The notes beneath the pieces are model-generated. The model ran no database searches. It saw only the letters and a program-made list of their open reading frames with translations, and was not told the origin of the DNA. A DNA stretch of 60,493 nt, the filler included, from Hausera hauseri (taxonomy: Eukaryota): assembly GCA_046269625.1 (NCBI GenBank). It is 11 parts of 11 records of this genome, joined end to end, with 100 filler letters (N's around TTAATTAATTAA, not from the genome) between each part and the next. Parts side by side here need not be neighbours in the genome. Positions count along the whole stretch, not along the records: positions 1 to 8,089 come from JBJURY010782090.1; 10 more parts are not named here. One strand, written 5' to 3'. The position numbers and the translations under genes were made by a program. Of this stretch, positions 1 through 54,521 are shown piece after piece. Each line of letters opens with the position of its first letter. Within the stretch, counting starts at the first letter, position 1.

Positions 1-10
1 TTATTAATAA

Positions 11-442
11 TCAATTCATGATCCACTGTCCGAATACCGAGTACAGCACTTTTCCATTGCTAAACACATTGACACAAAGTGGGCGAAACAATGTATATCT
101 CAGCGCAGGAAACAGTTCGTGTTCACACGTACATTCAGTGGCCATTGCTAATTTGTACAGATTGATTGTTTGGTAGTCTAACTTAGTCGTTACCATTATT
201 GATTGGATTTGGTCAATAACAATTCCGAATGGCATTAGTTTAATGTTACTGTCAGCTGTGATTGGTTTGCGACAACCAATAATATGACACTCTCCCGATT
301 GAAATATAATGTATGTAAAATCCGGTGGACACTTGAGGACATACTGCCTCGGCTTCCATTAATTAGACGACAATGCACTAATACACTCAGTAACATGGTC
401 GCGATAGTTGACATTGGCTATTATAATTGAAACAGTGTTCAT
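11..442 (-). pseudogene. TATA-binding protein (TBP)-like gene, two-repeat fold, one premature stop
   Basis: One frame from ATG 442 through a stop at 359-361: IANVNYR...KPRQYV...YIIFQSGECHIIGC (repeat 1, cf. TBP LIFxSGKMVCTG) and IQSIMVTTKL...INLYKL...EHELFPALRY...VNVFSNGKVL (repeat 2, cf. TBP IQNMV...YEPELFPGLIY...LIFVSGKVVL). Confidence 0.8.
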
Positions 443-511
443 ACTGCACCTACTTATATGTATATGTATATGATTATAAACAAAATGTACAAGAAATGCA
501 TCGCCAGTGAC

Positions 512-1144
512 ATGAAGCTGNNNNNNNNNNATTGTAGGCCCCAGTGGAAGTGGCAAAACGAACTTTGTTTGCAGAACCTTGACATATTCCAATCGCCGCT
601 GTTGAATCACATTTACTGGCGTCAGGGCAGTGGCAATGATGCAGAGTCATACCTGACACGTCAGGAATTCTGTAAATTAAAATCCGTAACGGTAATAGAT
701 GGGTTTGATGAGAACTGGTCTGAATTATTAAGCAGCGGTGATGTTATTGCCATTGACGATTTATTTCAAGAAGCAACAAAACAAATCGGCTTCAACAACC
801 TGTTCACGAAGATTGCACGACACCGTGGTGTGACGGTTATTTTCATTACGTAAAACATGTTCCATCATGGCGGACAGCATTGAACAAGAAATCTAAACGT
901 ACACTATTTAGTGTTATTCAAAAATCCCCGTGATCAGAGTATCATTAATTATGTTGCACGACAAGCATTTCCTCACAGCAGAGCCTACTTGATAAATGTA
1001 TATCATGATGCTACGAACAAACCGCATGGGTATCAGTTTATTGACTTTACACAACAGTACCCGGATGACATGCGTGTACAAACAGATATTTTCAATCCGA
1101 AAGGTGTATGTGTCTATAAACAAATTCGAAAATCGACAATATGA
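512..1144 (+). pseudogene. Maverick A32/FtsK-like DNA packaging ATPase
   Basis: Walker A IVGPSGSGKT just after the gap at 531, Walker B IAIDDL, then FTKIARH, IFIT*N, LNVHYLVLFKNPRD and KPHGYQFID. It has a frameshift and stops. Confidence 0.92.
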
Positions 1145-1356
1145 TTGCGATAAAATGAAGAATTTCCGAAAAACAATTGTTAAACGTAAACCTATCAAGC
1201 AGGTGTCTGCAAGAAACGTGTATCAAAACGAACCGCTACAGTCAAGCGATTAATCAATTTTGTGCTTCGAACAACAGCAGCAGCAACTAGATGCAAATTA
1301 CCGTCACAGTGGCAACGGTTATAAACAATTACGTGTTAGCATCAGTACGTCCAAAA

Positions 1357-1650
1357 ATGCTATTGAAACGTAGTCAGCCGTACTTTATTGCTTTGCTCAA
1401 AGCACCTACAAGACATAAGCGAAACATGCTACAATCATTCCCTAAATTTGTAGTAGACGATTTCATGGAAATTTTGTACAATATTATTGTGGGTTACGTT
1501 GACATTGGTAGTGGAAAGCGAAATTTATTAAAGTATCTAAAATGACTCATTGGCCTTGCCAACACTCGTAGTAAACGACTGAAACGAAAGTTTATGTACC
1601 AGCAAGATGACGGATTCCTTGGTGCAATTCTACCAATTATCACGTCATGA
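1357..1650 (+). pseudogene. Small conserved Maverick basic protein (PW/core-like) ending in a QxxGFLGAILP amphipathic tail
   Basis: EILYNII.G.V...KRNLLKYLK*...KRLKRKFMYQQDDGFLGAILPIITS resembles the Maverick 'ExxxNxLxG...QKGGFL' protein. Confidence 0.65.
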
Positions 1651-1790
1651 CTGGGTGGACGTATTTGTGGGAGAGTTTAGTATAAATATAACGGTAAGTA
1701 TATGATGATTTAGGGATATTGGTGCCTGGTTTTTATCACTTTGTCCCAGTTTACCGAATTTTTTATTAACGTTTCGTTCTAATTGCTGCA

Positions 1791-2790
1791 ATGCAAACAA
1801 AAACGACATCATCGACAACAACAATAGGCGACTTGTGGTTCGATCCGTATCATCTTTTCGGGTATACTGGCGTCGACAAATTTGAAAAGACTTTCAAACA
1901 GACTCGGCAACAGACCCAACATTGGCTGGGGAAACAGTTAGCATACAGCCTAAACAAACCGATAAGAGGGCGGTTTCCAAATCTTGCGTACCGTGATGCA
2001 GGTGTAAATAATGTATGGTAAATGGATTTGATAAAAATGATTCCGTACATCAACGATGGGTATCGGTACGTGCTGACATGCGAGGAAAATGTATATCCAG
2101 TAAAGAGATTGACGAAGCTGTTCACACATTAATAAACCAACAGAAACAACCACTGAAACATGTATAAACGGATTTGGTTAAAGAATTTTAGAACTCCCAT
2201 CTCGCATTTGTTTTGAGGCGGTTCGGTGTAAACCACTACTCTGTGTTTTCATAATACAAGACTGCACTCGTTGAACGATTTAATCGAACCATACGCGGCC
2301 GACTGAACAAATCCTTTTCCAAGCAGGGCAATAAACGCTCGGTAAATGTGCTACCGGATATTATCAATGCATACAATCATTCGATACATCGTGGCGTCAA
2401 TGGATTACGGCCGCTGGATGTAATCGACGATTTGGACATGTGGCTTTACCAAAACCTGCAACAAGCAGTTAATCGTCGTCTGAAACATAGATTTGGTTAT
2501 TATGTACCCATTTTATGGCCGAACACAACGCCATTTATTAAGAATTTCAATCAGAACTGGAGCGATTAGGTTTTCCGAATTTCAGAAATCAACACAAAAC
2601 AATCATCCGTCATGTAAGTTTTGGAAGATGAGAACGGTGAGGAGATACGTGGTAAATTCTACGAACAGGAACTGCAGGTACTGTCAGAAAAACCCGACAT
2701 ATATCGTATTGACGAAATTATACGTTTGCGCGGTAAAGGTTCGAGTAAACAATATCTCGTCAAGTGGCACGGATACACTGCAACAAGTTA
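1791..2790 (+). pseudogene. Maverick c-integrase (rve) with C-terminal chromodomain
   Basis: Motifs YSLNKPIR, W*MDL, NDGYRYVLTC, VERFNRTIR, YNHSIH, NWS, GKFYEQELQ and YRIDEII...YLVKWHGY. Confidence 0.92.
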
Positions 2791-2811
2791 GATTTTTGCA
2801 TCACAGATTCA

Positions 2812-3857
2812 ATGAGCAGCATTTACTTGGTACTTGGTAGTAACAGATCATTATCACAACATGACGATAATGACAATACCGCTAAACAGTTTACCATGCA
2901 CTTGGACCAACCGATCGATTTACGCCAGGGAGCATGGGAAGTGGCGCTGATGGATTTCACATTTACATTTTCACACAAATCAGTAAGTGAGAAAAGCGGT
3001 ATTTACTTTATCCGACTATAAAATTACCCTATTTCAAGTCGTTTACAGTTAATCCGAGACTCTAAGAAATATATTCATCGCAATTATTCGCAATACAATT
3101 TCTCGGTTTATGCTTATTTTTCAAACTACCGTATGGAACTAACACATCGACATCCCATGGAATTGCAGTTTGAATCCATGGCTGATGCTGAGGCACGGGG
3201 TTTTCAATCAGTCAGTATACGCTCGAAAGGTCTACGGCTAGGAGGACATGTTATAATTGGTGAAAAATCAAACCTTTCCACTAATGTGACAACTGCAGCT
3301 GTAGTGAACTGGATTAGGTCAGAATCAGTCTTTCGATCATATATTGTACCATATGACTTATTTATGAAAACGGAATTGGAATTGTGTGAATACGTCCAAA
3401 AAACGTCTACGTTAGCTGTAAAGACATGAGAAATAAACATAGATGATCACATTTCGCTTACACTACATGACAATGTTATATATTTTGCCTCTGATGAATT
3501 ACTGGCTCGGAATCTAGGTTTTTAAAAATGCGAATTCTATCAAACCATTGTTGGACAATCTATTGTTGCCAAATACAAACCACAATTCTATGGAGCATTT
3601 TGACGGACTTAGCCGAATCCGTACTCGTTGGTGGAGAACGTAAACAACTACTGGCTTCTACCGAACTGGATTCTGAAACATACAAAACATCGGGTGAAAC
3701 TGTTCACGTTAATATGCTTAGACTCATGTACTTATCACTGGCTCACAATATTGTGCACAGTATTTCCGTGTATATACTTGATGAATTTTGCGAACTCATT
3801 AAATTTCTGATGGGTCAACGACACATTTGACGTTATATTTTATGACATCAATAATAA
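2812..3857 (+). pseudogene. Minor capsid (penton/PX-like) protein, paralog 1
   Basis: N-terminus IYLVLGSN...NTAKQFTMHLDQPIDL..AWEVALMDF; C-terminus TDLAESVLVGG..KQLL...MYLSL...ISVYILDE. Confidence 0.72.
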
Positions 3858-3891
3858 ACAAACTGCATAATCATTATTGACATCATTGTAA

Positions 3892-4973
3892 ATGAGTATT
3901 TACATGATGTTGCCTAGTAACAGTTGTCCGACGACTCGCCCAGTGAATACATTCAGCCAGTGAATACATTGTAGATTGGAACCATTCATTTGAACTTATC
4001 TGGAAAATGGGAGGTTGCACTGACGGAATTTAACTTTTCTATACGCAACGATGACATAAAAAGGTAGTATGAATATAACGTACAACAAAACTGTTACTGA
4101 AACCAAAACACATTATTGTCCTCTGACACTTACTAACAATAAAATAACAGTTGGAGAATCTTCCATTTGCACGACCAGTACAAATTACTATTCATATAAC
4201 AAGATCGGTGTTTTTATTTTGGGGAAAAACTTACATTTTATGAAAGATTTTGAATTTACTGTCACCATTGAGTTTTCTGAGATAGCGCAGAAATTTATAT
4301 TCAAAAATACAGAGTACAAAGGTAAACATATTAAAACTAAATATGCAGTTGCGCCAAGATTAAGTCCGTACATTACCAGATAACGGTGAAATTTACCTAT
4401 ATAGCACAAAGGGTTTCAACATTATACGTATAGATTGGATGTAATGTCTGGTGCGAATCTGTAGTACATCTCTTTCAACACTTTTCTTAAAATCAAAAGT
4501 GCAAGGCGATATTTAAAGTTTTCGAGTCAGATGCAAATGGGTACATTAAATTTGAACTGGCTAAGGATATTGTCGACATTTCATTGCACAATGCTTTGGC
4601 CATGGTGTTGGGTTTTGAAAAACAACGGTTTGAGGCATCGAATACAAAGACGGCGGCGGCATATGTTGCTACACTTAAACCCAAACTAAAAACTGGACTA
4701 AGTCAAATATGCATTTACGTGAACGTCACCGAACCGATTTTGGTTGGTGGAGTACGTATACCGCTACTCCGTGCAATTTATCCGGAAAACAGTAAGTATA
4801 TTTTTGGCGACAATGTCACTGTCAAGGTCAATAATACAATGTACCTACCTGTGGCAACTACATCTATAAACAATGTTCAAGTGAATATTAGATGTGACGT
4901 GAGCTACCTTATTGAATTTCCGTACTCTACCACAACTTCTCTAACTCACCATTTCCGTCAAATCCATGATTGA
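3892..4973 (+). pseudogene. Minor capsid (penton/PX-like) protein, paralog 2
   Basis: N-terminus MSIYMMLPSNS...LSGKWEVALTEF; C-terminus IYVNVTEPILVGGVRIPLLR...MYLPV...INNVQVNIR...TSLTHHFR. Confidence 0.78.
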
Positions 4974-5328
4974 TTCTGAAATTGTTTCCATTTACAGTAA
5001 ACCCCAGCAAGGCAGTGAACTACCGTATCTCGCTGTTAAACAGTATGGCTCTGGATGGTTGCGTACATTGGCACGTTTATCATATCCAGTGTTGAAGAGT
5101 ATTGGACCCGTGGCAGCAAAACAGCACAGGATGTACTATATAAAAACAAATCGATTTTACCACCACTTATAGAATACACCTTGAGAGAAATAAAAAGCTC
5201 TGCACCGGGAGTCGTTGAATCAGTCAAAAAATAATTCGCCGGTAGTGGCTTGAGAAAACGACGTAGATCATCATCGAGCTCATCAACTATAAACATACGT
5301 CAAAGTCGTACGATTTTCGATAGATTGA
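4966..5328 (+). pseudogene. Maverick core/membrane-active-like protein (QYGSG + amphipathic helix, basic tail)
   Basis: KQYGSGWLRTLARLSYPVLK...AGSGLRKRRR...TIFD. GxG motifs are candidate adenain cleavage sites, and the gene lies just before the MCP. Confidence 0.65.
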
Positions 5329-6559
5329 TGGACAAATTGCATCTGCAAAATCTGAATTGTGCATATTGGACAAAGCCGCATAAGAAGTTGTTATTGACAA
5401 TGCAGTATTTGCAGAAATCTAGCCCTTTGATTCTGTTTCAACGGACGATAACATTGACATTCAATTCAACATTATGGCATTGGACAATGAATATCTAGAT
5501 TTAAACTATACGCTTGTCATTGTTGAAAAGGATGCATCAACGGTTTTCACTGAAACAGACCCTGTCACACCGGCCAATTATCCTTTCCTCACACTGTTCC
5601 AGGAGGCTTCACTGACTCTAAACAGCGTCAAAATTGAATGCAACACCAATCTATACAGTATCAAAACACTCATTGAAACGGCTCTGAATTACAGTGCAGA
5701 CGCGAAAACGATTTATTTGACGAAAACCATCGGATATGACGCCACTGCACAAATCGTCAGGCATGGGTGGCAGAATCAAAGGGGCTTACCATGTGCGGAC
5801 CGCTGTACTTTGAAGTTTTTGATCAGCCAAAATACCTACTGCATGGTGTTAAAGCCATGATTCGGCTCAAACGCAACGACACTGTCCTTTGTTTAAAAAC
5901 CGCAGCTGAAGACTTCGAACCAATACTGAAAATTACCGAGGCACGACTATGCGTACATTGTGTAAAGGTAGAACCATCTGTGCTCATGGGACATCGATTA
6001 AGCTTGGAAACACAAAATGCCTGTTAACCATTACAAGTCACAGAACTCGTATTTTACACCATATCCAAAGGTTCAACTACGTTTTACAAAGATGCACTGT
6101 TTGGCGACATGCGATTGCCGAAATTTGTGCTCGTTGCATTTGAAGTGACTGTTCTACAAACGGGCCGTAATACCATCGATTCGGAAACGCTTACCCATAG
6201 CAATGTGAATTATATCAATTTGAGTCGGAATGCGGATTTCGCTGAGAACAAACAAGCAGGATTTCAAGACCGGCGATTACGTTTGCGCATATATGCAATC
6301 TATCGTGCGCAACATGGGTTTGCTGAACAAACATGTCAACAATGGCATATGGATGGATTTGTTCAAGTCCACCTATCCATTCTTAACCTTTGTCCTGGCT
6401 CCGGTTTATGACGTTAAACAGACTCAACTACGTCAGCAAGGAAACCTACGACTGGAGGTTTACTTTGCTAAAGCGTTGGAGAAATCTACCGTGATGTACA
6501 TTTAAGGTGTATTTTATGCCAAGGTTGAAATAACGAAAAACGAAACCATCATTGTATAA
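5328..6559 (+). pseudogene. Maverick major capsid protein (PY, double jelly-roll)
   Basis: KSEL..., EYLDLNYT, NYPFLTLFQEASLTLN, IETALNYS, FDQPKYLLHGV..IRLKR, LPKFVLVAF, GNLRLEVYF. Multiple frameshifts. Confidence 0.9.
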
Positions 6560-6591
6560 ATAAAATCTTCATCTTTGTACCATGAAGTACT

Positions 6592-6990
6592 ATGAAGTAA
6601 TTTATTTTGATTACTACCATTCTGCTTCAATCACATTTTACATTTAGCTCAAATGAGCTCAGTCACTATGGAAAACTGCTCTTGGACGTGAAATTTCGTG
6701 GCGTGTTTCCACTGGACTGTGTGCCGCGTGATTTACGAGAAACTGACAGCTTTATTGTCAATACACAAACATGGGATTGCTGTGTACGTCCATCCGACCA
6801 ACCTCGTCAGAGTATTCGATCCTCTCGGATTTTACTGTCTGCCATCTTTAGTTTCTCAAATTGAACGGCTTTCATCATCATACCGAGTTGAATATAATCG
6901 AGTTCATTATCAACATCCAATGACTACTATGTGGACATTACTGCTTATTGTGGCTTACATTACAATCACTTTTGTGAAATATATGTATTA
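6592..6990 (+). pseudogene. Adenain-like cysteine maturation protease
   Basis: FRGVFPLD, FIVNT, (H)xIAVY, VFDPLG, YN...YQ...TxCGHYCL across frameshifts. Confidence 0.85.
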
Positions 6991-7410
6991 TTTTATTGCT
7001 GTTGTTTTGTGTACCAAAGAGCGAACAATTCATGAGAAATATAATATGTGACTTTTGATCACAATCATTCTCCTTGTGAGTAGTAGTACTCAATTATGAG
7101 TTCGTCATACAAAGTAAAATTCACACGACTTTTTACAAAACGAACGAACGCATTTACAACGATGATGATTNNNNNNNNNNGCTTACATTACAATCACTTT
7201 TGTGAAATATATATTTGTATTATTTTATTCCTGTTGTTGGTTTTTTTTGCGAACAAATCATGAGAAATAATATGATATTTTCATTGATCACAATCATTCT
7301 CCTTGTGAGTACTAGTACTCAGTTATGAGCTCATCATCGTCGCCGTCGTCATAAAAAATAAAATTCAAACGACTTTTTACAAAACGGACGAAGGCATTTA
7401 CAACGATGAT
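6953..7410. repeat. ~220-bp direct duplication either side of a 10-N scaffold gap
   Basis: gcttacattacaatcacttttgtgaaatat...tttacaacgatgat occurs at ~6953-7170 and again at 7181-~7410 with small indels. Confidence 0.85.
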
Positions 7411-8089
7411 ATTTTGACTTGTTAACAATGCGTTTTTTCGTTTGTTCGTTCGTTCGTTCGATTTCATTTTTCAGCCCGATCCATTGGTCTGATCGAGAGG
7501 CCGCTATAATATGAAAATTTCCCAACTTATTGACAATGTATTGGACCAATTTCCATCACCGGCAGACTTGAAAATGGGGAAATTTTACCCGTTTGAAAAT
7601 TCCCTATGGAATTTTCCCCATGTTCTCATGGTCTGACCGACGTGCAACAATGTCCATTGCAATCGGCAATATCTATTTACCCCTGTGTAAATCGTTCCGT
7701 GTTACACGTGGAAAATTTCCTGTTTTGATTTTTCCTCTTATAACGCCTGTCCCTTACATTTCTGTAAGCCGTATCTCTGTTAACTTTTGCTCACCTCGTC
7801 ACGCGCTATTGATGTCACCTGGTCCGAACCTCTTTGCTCGACCTCATTTTCTAGGGGGGGGGTCGTGAGAAAATTTTAGTGAAATGTTCAGAATAGCCAA
7901 TCAGGTGGGGAAAACTGGTCGGCTGACCAATCAGAGAAGTGCGGTGGAGAGCTCACTTCTACATTACTGACCACATAAATAGATAAGTCTCTACCGACAA
8001 CTCCCTTTCTCTCTCTCAGACCCCATAGCACGGTTAAGTAAAGATAAATTTAATTACGTACGATTATTAAATAAAAGTTCTCCCAATTT

Positions 8090-52459: not shown

Positions 52460-53325
52460 TTAAACGCGTTAATCAGCGAAACTTCCTCATCGTTTAGTAC
52501 ACTGGGGATGAGTTGTTCGTCAGTTTTTATGAGGTTATTTACGAGGATATAAATATTAAACGCAGGAAATCCATGTTTGATATTTGTTGACGAATCGTAT
52601 TGCAAACAAAATGCCAGTAACATCAATTTCGTCATCAGGTTTGCACATATCAACAAGGTCGTCCATCAGAACTGTCTTCTGACTACGTGGCAATCGCCCA
52701 GCAACAACATATCCTGAAGTTTCTTGAATAGTAATTCTTTGATAATTTTTGTATACAGTCTGTTCAGAATCGATGTTAAAAGGACCAATCGACTGGCAAT
52801 CTGGACAAGATGTCGGTTTAATTTGCTTATTCACCTCTGATTATATAAACGGTCGAACGACGCAGTGACATTTGACGCATCCATAATAAGCTTGACTTAA
52901 CTGAGGGAAAACATTTGTGCAATTTGCAACTACTCCAGAGACACGAACCAACTGACCGATGTGAGCCTCACGTAGAGATCTTATTTCCTCAATCAAGGGA
53001 AGATGGCAAATGCGTATGTGGATAACGTTTGATATTTTCTCGTAGTTTTTGTGTCTGTTTGATGACTTCAAATGCTACCTCATGAAATATTTTCAGCATT
53101 TCCAATGGTGCTTCCGGTACAAAATATGCAAATGCCTGTTCAGTTGCTACCAAATGATCATAATCGACAACGACACTTCGCTCATTCCTTTGTGCCATAG
53201 CAGAAATTCGTTCAGAATACATCAACTTCCCCTCGGAATTCATGTACGGTTGCAAAAATGTAAAACGATTTTTTATTGTTTGTCTCGTTTGCGGTAAGAA
53301 ATCCAGATGAATTCGGACACTTTCT
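52460..53325 (-). pseudogene. MCM2: MCM2 N-terminal fragment (helical, Zn-finger and OB domains; no AAA+ domain)
   Basis: [86 protein letters not shown]. It has frameshifts and a stop. Confidence 0.93.
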
Positions 53326-54521
53326 ATATTTGTTCCAGTTCTCATTAACTGGAAGATAAAGAGAATCCATTTCAAGCACCCCGGCAATCGTTGCCAAATT
53401 AGGGGGACGATTACAAAATTCAGGCCATAATTTTCGAAATATCAAAGCAGTCGTTAATACATCGGTAGCGCAATATGTGGTTAGGCTTTGAAAATCTTTT
53501 ACTACAGATTCCATAGAACCCTTTATGAAAACTTCTTGCAACTTGTTACTTGTAGCAATATTACTTTTAGGATAATAATGTGTGAACACTTCATATAGGC
53601 TAATGAATGAAGCGTCATTGATCCACTTTTCATTATCTCTAATATCTTCTATAGAAAAATCATCAATATCTTCCCGATTATTTGCATAAAATTGCTTCTA
53701 TAATTTATTGTAAACACGATTTTTATCAAATGACTGTTTCAAACTCCTCTATAACGACGTCATTCCGCAAATGGCAATATGTAACGACATTGTATCGATA
53801 AACCGAATAGCGCTACCTGCAATATAGTATTCATCCATTATTTGTTGTCGATCGCGAGTAACAAAATGCCCAATTATACATTTAGGTTTAAATTTATTCA
53901 TTCTATCGGAAATCGGAGCCAATTCGTCGCTTGTTATATTGAGATTATTCCGTGGAATACCCTTTATCAACTGATCACTCGTCCATGAATACAAATTGTT
54001 GGCTCCCAAAGCAACAGCAATTATTGCCCGATGACTTTCAGCAGTGATTATTTCAACGTCGAAAAACAATAGATCTTCATCTGGAACGTCAACCTTACTT
54101 GCACTTTGATTGATTTTATTGTATTTCGTCCATCCACTTTAGAATTTCCACTGTTTTGGAATTGTTGGAATATTCCAATCACCAATGACGTCGTTAAAAA
54201 GTGTCAAAAAGGTGAAGTAATCCGTTTAGCAGCAATTTCTAGATGGCTTTCAACTTTATTTCTATGCATCGTCGGTAGGTTGAATTCAACGAATATACTT
54301 TTATACGTTTTTGAAATATCAACATTCAATTTCTCAAAAATGCTACACGTTTCACGTAAATCAAGTTTTTGTGGTGGTGAATTGTGAAAAAGTCTATTTC
54401 GGAGAGAATCACTTATCATTTGAATATTTATTTTATTCATTCTTTTAACATGCGTTTCACGAAATGCAAAACATCGAATCAAATAATTATTTGAAGACCT
54501 GAAAATTTTTAATGTCGCCAT
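53326..54521 (-). pseudogene. POLG: Mitochondrial DNA polymerase gamma N-terminal/exonuclease fragment
   Basis: NIQMIS, GWTKY, FFDVE (ExoI), IIGHFVTRDR (ExoII), FIDTMSLHIAICG, YCATDV (ExoIII), LEMDSLYLPVNENWNKY. It has stops and a frameshift and is truncated before the polymerase domain. Confidence 0.92.

Follow-up and report, generated by a model that had tools for sequence, protein, structure and literature searches.

A decayed Maverick in the window (the whole stretch of Hausera hauseri DNA analysed here, 60,493 nt including filler) contains a copy of a compact TBP-like gene, the intact relatives of which probably encode a late-promoter specificity factor of intact, adintovirus-type Mavericks. 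The window copy is dead, carrying three lesions (start, stop and frameshift), and it is of value as a lead to a family that comprises at least 58 clusters (50% identity, profile search at E ≤ 1e-30). Together with a positioned promoter box, YATAAAC(A/G), the element-borne TBP names a candidate switch and its target for the timing of capsid production without an RNA polymerase of the element's own, which serves the question of whether animal Mavericks are autonomous viruses.

The window contains a decayed Maverick with a TBP-like gene

The Maverick lies within the first piece of the window (1–8089), the pieces being set apart by N44-linker-N44 spacers, and the remaining pieces are mostly LTR-retrotransposon debris (57 ORFs scanned) with matches to reverse transcriptase, RNase H, integrase and DUF1759, which would fit an animal genome. 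A separate region on the minus strand (52556–54138) holds intron-poor, broken pieces of two host replication genes end to end, and looks like captured gene fragments in a mobile element. The first piece encodes the exonuclease of mitochondrial polymerase gamma (PF18136, E 1e-39 and 8e-16), and behind it come the N-terminal and OB domains of MCM (E 4e-14, 1e-10 and 7e-20). The following features were assigned within the Maverick.

1..424, minus strand: TBP-like gene, pseudogene; start position lost (424–422), in-frame stop (361–359), frameshift near 45–50, 3' end beyond the window
453..460, minus strand: TATA-like box, 36 nt upstream of the position homologous to the TBP start
475..482, plus strand: element box TATAAACA, 37 nt upstream of the ATPase start codon and arranged back to back with the box of the TBP gene
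512..1123, plus strand: A32-like packaging ATPase, broken; encloses the gap 521–530; frameshift and two stops; 63% to the L001 ATPase (E 1e-76)
1115..1122, plus strand: element box, 40 nt upstream of ATG 1155, which opens a short basic ORF
1320..1327, plus strand: element box, 37 nt before ATG 1357
1357..1674, plus strand: small conserved gene of cluster c5, broken; weak adenovirus pX-like tail (Pfam E 0.011)
1791..2809, plus strand: retroviral-type integrase, broken; seven stops and a frameshift; 49% to the L036 integrase (E 4e-85)
2812..4961, plus strand: two tandem minor-capsid-like genes, broken; putative label, from position and size
3853, plus strand: one-mismatch box before ATG 3892 (second minor-capsid-like gene)
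4963..5192, plus strand: small conserved gene of cluster c20, broken, ahead of the capsid gene
5288..5295, plus strand: element box, 40 nt upstream of the major capsid start codon (5328)
5328..6556, plus strand: double jelly-roll major capsid protein, broken; two frameshifts and four stops; 41–56% to L036 (E 1e-97)
6555..6925, plus strand: one-mismatch box (6555) with a broken adenain-like protease; a cluster member matches Peptidase_C5 at E 0.0015, below the Pfam cut-off

The Maverick markers found in this element are the retroviral-type integrase, the A32-like ATPase, the double jelly-roll capsid and the adenain-like protease. A member of the integrase's cluster matched rve (E 1e-12). The capsid fold was taken from a model of the L036 protein, which matched iridovirus, PBCV-1, mavirus and Sputnik capsids in a fold search (best E 1.9e-16), whereas a capsid profile gave no match among PDB sequences. 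The minor-capsid-like genes, conserved and in the expected place, returned no Pfam match, and the c5 gene is presumably the PZ/GasderminX gene. pPolB is absent from the visible part of the element, which starts inside the TBP gene, its left end lying beyond the window. Between 6953 and 7410, a direct duplication of ~229–244 nt (92–100% alike) straddles a gap (7171–7180) and may represent a subterminal repeat or an assembly artefact.

The first-pass annotation had described a frame of about 143 codons, interrupted once, that holds both TBP repeat signatures. This frame is present at 442–11 (minus strand), with a single in-frame stop at codon 28 (359–361), and both quoted motifs are found there, although several of their letters reflect private decay at otherwise near-invariant columns of the family. 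With the stop read as X, the frame matches PF00352 (E 6e-10, 39.3 bits against a cut-off of 22.9) as the sole family up to E 1, the match consisting of one stretch only, in repeat 2. The best PDB sequence matches were TBPs in 8/8 cases (best E 3.9e-5), and all candidates from a protein search (11/11) were compact PF00352 proteins of 114–165 aa at 32–73% identity.

The gene had been placed head-to-head with the ATPase at a distance of 70 bp. The orientation stands and ATG 512 does lie 70 nt from 442, but the alignment of relatives begins at 424 rather than 442 (tblastn of the intact natural relative P0002: 424–44, residues 1–123, 73%), and the intergenic spacer is therefore ~88 nt. Position 424 is no start codon in the window copy. 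The far end of the quoted frame had to be revised: similarity leaves it near 45–50 and resumes in another frame up to position 1, therefore the end of the TBP gene lies outside the window. The last ~10 codons of the 143-codon frame are not homologous to the relatives.

The three lesions look private to the window copy, because related contigs in four public runs (2390, 113, 47 and 25 contigs) differ from it at the stop and near the frameshift in 4/4 runs, and at the start position in 2/4. The terminal branch of the window TBP measures 0.47 in a quick tree, compared to 0.02–0.07 in its two closest relatives. As had been proposed, decay is shared with the neighbours, the ATPase, integrase, capsid and protease frames all containing stops and/or frameshifts.

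The TBP gene is part of the element

A scan of metagenome contigs identified 88 TBP relatives, and 80 loci were kept. An ATPase, integrase, capsid, protease or pPolB gene is carried by 39/80 of these TBP loci, and by 14/19 of those of at least 5 kb. The marker counts in the 80 loci are 24 for ATPase, 20 for integrase, 13 for minor capsid (a putative label across loci), 12 for major capsid, 13 for protease and 8 for pPolB. Marker identities in the relatives include Pox_A32 in 7/12 ATPases, rve, Peptidase_C5 (weak) and DNA_pol_B_2. Five loci of this size are unlinked: L006 and L011 have accessory genes in common with linked loci, L076 and L080 contain large-virus frames that resemble family B polymerase and ribonucleotide reductase (by eye), and L077 has a cellular-type TBP.

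TBP distances track those of the ATPase (Mantel rho 0.81, 20 loci), capsid (0.85, 9 loci), integrase (0.80, 11 loci) and pPolB (0.94, 7 loci), with at most 2/2000 permutations as high (L065 and L036 set aside). The TBP family is under purifying selection, with a median dN/dS of 0.20 and a maximum of 0.65 over 50 non-independent pairs (L036, L071, L072, L074, L076 and L077 set aside).

Gene order varies between loci. TBP is usually found upstream of the ATPase in tandem, lies behind the protease in L028, L032, L033, L034 and L037, and is divergent in the window and L025. The head-to-head arrangement does not hold as a family layout, most relatives being tandem. In the group C elements L054, L057 and L063–L065, KilA-N/DUF3627 and PLA2-like genes are located upstream of TBP. 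The neighbour genes c2, c7, c13, c15 and c6 gave no Pfam family above cut-off and no TFIIA- or TFIIB-like partner. An atlas search returned TBP clusters only, and a viral contig collection contained no relative of the TBP, capsid or ATPase alignments. One weak TBP-like match (25%) was located on a 3.4-kb contig of a bacterial metagenome bin (L081:2935–3351), which may be a eukaryotic or viral piece binned in error.

In a quick IQ-TREE tree (101 rows with long branches, archaeal and named NCLDV sequences not being among them), the window protein groups with P0002 and P0003 (SH-aLRT 100) within a 62-row reduced element clade (SH-aLRT 96). This clade adjoins an 11-row group from PLA2-bearing elements (SH-aLRT 87). 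Nesting in host TBP/TRF was not seen in this quick tree, the window row standing apart from the 15 core cellular rows. With relatives linked to Maverick genes and placed outside the cellular TBP/TRF rows, the first-pass assignment of the TBP gene to the element is upheld.

The large-virus TBPs L074, L076 and L080 fall outside the element clade, on a separate branch of the quick tree; in these loci TBP adjoins polymerase-like and ribonucleotide-reductase-like frames of a large DNA virus. The L073-type TBP joins weakly (SH-aLRT 86, with one long unnamed row) and L071 is placed elsewhere. L073, L075, L078 and L079 are Maverick-like, and their near-cellular TBP immediately follows a gene for the p15 coactivator PC4 (PF02229, E 4e-21). 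The capsid- and protease-bearing locus L071 (1–3582) has two tandem TBP-like genes, one very divergent (PF00352 E 9e-7) and one near-cellular (E 1e-42), possibly a duplication caught during specialisation.

The N gap at 521–530 lies close to the TBP gene. ATPase codons 1–3 (512–520) are located to its left and match the N-terminus of the L022–L024 ATPases, and one contig of run X1 spans window positions 379–520. Because the ATPase begins on the TBP side of the gap, the gap hides about seven ATPase codons rather than a misjoin.

The reduced TBP keeps the saddle fold and the TFIIB side

The fold was read on an AlphaFold2 model of P0002 (73% to the window copy; 17-row alignment, pLDDT 89.1). A Foldseek search with this model returned 44 PDB matches at E ≤ 0.001, all those shown being TBPs or TBP complexes (E 7e-9). 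In VIA-align, 38 TBP entries scored Z 10.5–12.9 (Z 12.9 with an rmsd of 2.2 Å over 142 residues), and the next unrelated row scored Z 6.3. Across the two comparisons, 142–148 residues were aligned. P0002 as modelled has the two-repeat TBP saddle fold (residues 1–149), in agreement with the family assignment made from the signatures. Repeat 1 of the model is without any helix of four or more residues. The repeat-1 helix H1 and the basic H2 are deleted or shortened in groups A and B, and present in groups C and D.

Residue conservation was compared between 61 reduced-family rows and 16 cellular rows, four long or broken rows having been dropped before aligning. Based on this alignment, three of the four intercalating Phe are kept (61/61 each), while the fourth, the first of repeat 1, is a gap in 61/61 rows. 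The repeat-1 Asn is kept in 59/61 rows, and the acidic Glu residues of the repeat-2 stirrup in 60/61 and 61/61. Five changes are fixed in the reduced family: V>R (60/61), T>M (60/61), N>S (60/61), V>T (55/61) and L>N (61/61). The 11 group-C rows share them (10–11/11) yet keep the helices. We take the columns of these fixed substitutions to face the DNA, repeat 1 to contact box positions 7–8, and the helices lost from repeat 1 to be those that bind TFIIA, TAF1, Brf1 and Mot1. The acidic stirrup residues are described as the TFIIB contact in the accessible part of PMC12529657.

A positioned box precedes ATPase and virion genes

The YATAAAC(A/G) box was tested de novo on 74/80 loci (L071, L072, L074, L076, L077 and L080 set aside). 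It was found that ATAAAC occurs in 102/261 de-duplicated 80-nt upstream regions against 14.5 expected, and that 105/257 YATAAAC sites lie 30–49 nt before an ATG opening at least 60 codons, compared to 8/257 when read antisense, these counts overstating independence since the loci are related. The control words AATAAAC and YATAAAG were found at 30–49 nt in 9/105 and 11/127 cases, respectively.

The box is found before the ATPase in 14/20 cases, the major capsid in 6/10, the minor capsid in 8/14, c5 in 10/14 and the PLA2-like gene in 7/8, and is scarce before the integrase (3/14), protease (1/4), c20 (1/6), pPolB (0/6) and TBP (0/45), counts that are noisy for the non-TBP genes, the starts of which were set at the first Met. 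A paired test within the same 19 loci found the box before the ATPase in 17/19 and before TBP in 0/19. The pPolB upstream region of L056 has a box at −61. A canonical TATAWAWR precedes 16/45 TBP genes, and in many of the TBP upstream regions of L001–L053 the TATA is accompanied by CCAAT-like words and by TCA(T/C)T words that resemble an initiator (by eye), as in ordinary Pol II promoters.

Box sites exceed expectation in the groups with derived TBPs (93 observed and 37 expected in group A, 47 and 14 in B, 61 and 17 in C). No enrichment accompanies the near-cellular TBP of group D (6 and 5.5), a control of four loci from about two lineages that are distant in other genes too. L071 gave 2 and 1.4, and the box is not in excess in the PC4-TBP loci L073, L075, L078 and L079.

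The window itself contains six boxes on the gene strand against 1.4 expected (1/500 shuffles) and none on the other strand. Four of the six lie 37–40 nt before an ATG (ATPase, basic ORF, c5 and capsid), while those at 2163 and 4865 do not. The second minor capsid gene and the protease each have a box with one mismatch ahead of them, and the window integrase and c20 have no box within 60 nt. The first-pass proposal that the protein could redirect host Pol II to element promoters draws support from this positioned, gene-class-specific box, and such redirection is plausible on the sequence evidence.

An LRR gene follows the TBP region in five group-B loci (L029, L031, L038, L046 and L049), with a late box in 4/5. 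An antisense box ahead of TBP was considered as a general autoregulation device and rejected, occurring in 3/45 cases.

Proposed mechanism and alternatives

In the proposed mechanism, host machinery would transcribe the TBP gene first, from an ordinary TATA-type promoter; the TATA-like box at 453..460 is likely a host-read early promoter of this kind. The reduced TBP would then bind and bend YATAAAC(A/G) in the minor groove, the lost Phe and the new polar residues favouring C at position 7, which the host consensus YWTAWADN excludes. The retained acidic stirrup would recruit host TFIIB and Pol II, and the loss of the repeat-1 helices would free the reduced TBP from TFIIA/TAF/Mot1-type control. 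A second wave would follow in which the ATPase and virion genes are switched on. All four steps, binding to the box included, are predictions. In the window, where the two boxes stand back to back, the TBP protein may in addition damp its own promoter, although this is speculative. The repeat-1 changes fit the proposal in that, with the contacts assumed here, they would lie on the side of the box that departs from the host consensus (C at 7).

Several observations count against a late factor. Among the presumed late genes, the protease, c20 and integrase mostly lack the box and minor capsid counts are also incomplete, a strict canonical TATA precedes only 16/45 TBP genes, and the loss of one Phe and two helices could weaken DNA binding.

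The box could instead serve as a late promoter throughout Mavericks, with host TBP or a helper virus factor as its reader and the element TBP acting elsewhere (for example at termini or Pol III-type promoters). Host TBP may read the box weakly, because there is a crystal structure of it on a variant of the adenovirus major late box that contains C (title of PDB 1qn3). All loci compared carry a TBP, and the box might thus be general to Mavericks and read by another factor. We assume the C of the crystallised variant to be at position 7. Virophage and PLV promoters that match helper giant-virus motifs are also prominent in the accessible literature. On the other side, the accessible text of PMC1935006 gives a host TATA consensus, YWTAWADN, without C at position 7, and places one Phe pair between positions 7 and 8. 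Loci with a near-cellular TBP have no excess of the box, and the fixed substitutions would lie on the DNA-binding face. Taken together, we regard a box read by other factors as unlikely.

More doubtful still is a decoy, in which the protein would soak up host TFIIB or occupy host TATA boxes, so damping transcription or defence, the box being incidental. It would agree with the TFIIB-side stirrup being the best-kept surface while repeat 1 is eroded, and with Pfam scoring repeat 2 alone in the window copy, but it gives no reason for the DNA face to have gained invariant polar residues in each of its halves and leaves a positioned, non-canonical box before virion genes unexplained. Finally, a host TBP/TRF pseudogene beside the element, or an assembly join at 521–530, is scarcely credible and is refuted by linkage, the ATPase N-terminus left of the gap and the tree: although the N gap separates most of the ATPase from the TBP gene and the head-to-head layout is rare among related loci (L025 alone is divergent, and other genes intervene there), the start of the ATPase and the box ahead of it lie on the TBP side and match relatives, the X1 contig covers 379–520, and the relatives are intronless element genes apart from the cellular rows.

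Returning to the element TBP as a late-promoter specificity factor, we see about even chances for a wider version. A large part of animal Mavericks and adintoviruses would run their own two-stage transcription programme, a captured TBP having been pared stepwise (near-cellular, helix-retaining, minimal) into an orthogonal TBP–promoter pair that brings host TFIIB and Pol II to virion genes alone. If true, no smaller late-transcription switch would be known, and this one would be independent of the herpesvirus and poxvirus solutions. It would also provide direct evidence for helper-free particle production by these elements. As a probable natural altered-specificity TBP, the family shows which surfaces can be dropped, and it could give an orthogonal promoter–factor pair.

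Comparison with known systems

The window element resembles Mavericks/Polintons, adintoviruses and MELD viruses (PMC8502044) in its integrase, A32 ATPase, double jelly-roll capsid and adenain, and its relatives also carry pPolB and PLA2-like genes. Starrett et al. 2021 label a TBP gene, on a polinton-like element, in the legend of their Fig. 5 (MELD viruses), without discussion in the accessible text, and the adintovirus gene list as accessible there contains no TBP and gives no promoter (PMC8502044). This labelled TBP, or an unnamed 'Adintoc' group, could be the TBP family described here. In the available parts of two further papers, TBPs are mentioned only in mirusvirus-like elements (PMC10675990) or only in the references (PMC12220804). 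Our literature search, the scope of which lay outside subscription papers and repeat-library reports, found no description of a Maverick TBP family or of the YATAAAC(A/G) box.

Cellular and archaeal TBP/TRF proteins (PF00352; PDB 1cdw, 1ytb and 1mp9) share with the family the two-repeat saddle, three Phe, the repeat-1 Asn and the E-x-E-L-F-P stirrup. In contrast to cellular TBP, the family is borne by mobile elements, measures ~145–160 aa rather than ~180 at 20–26% identity, and is without the fourth Phe and, in the model, the repeat-1 helices, with five DNA-face positions fixed to other residues.

The TBP-like factors of NCLDVs, mirusviruses and poxviruses are likewise viral TBP folds. The best viral match of the P0002 model in BFVD is a Heterosigma akashiwo virus TBP (E 1.3e-7), an ASFV B263R-like protein matched at E 7e-5, and chains of the vaccinia initiation complex scored Z 5.3–5.8. 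Weak structural matches were also found to herpesvirus BcRF1 (E 4.5e-3) and a UL87-domain protein; the viral TBP-like proteins of NCLDVs and herpesviruses score below cellular TBPs. Most NCLDVs pair their TBP-like factors with their own RNA polymerase, whereas Mavericks have none of their own.

The herpesvirus TBP mimics (KSHV ORF24, EBV BcRF1 and HCMV UL87) share with the Maverick protein a viral TBP fold, a more polar DNA face and a non-canonical late box. According to the accessible part of PMC12529657, ORF24 uses TBP-like Phe and a polar interface on TATTWAA late promoters, and is a large multi-domain protein that acts in a six-protein viral complex, binds Pol II and is without the acidic TFIIB residues. 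The Maverick protein, by comparison, is a single domain of ~150 aa that keeps the acidic TFIIB residues and reads, on our proposal, another box, and no partner complex was found for it among the genes surveyed. By analogy, the Maverick TBP most likely works like ORF24, BcRF1 and UL87, without being a member of their group.
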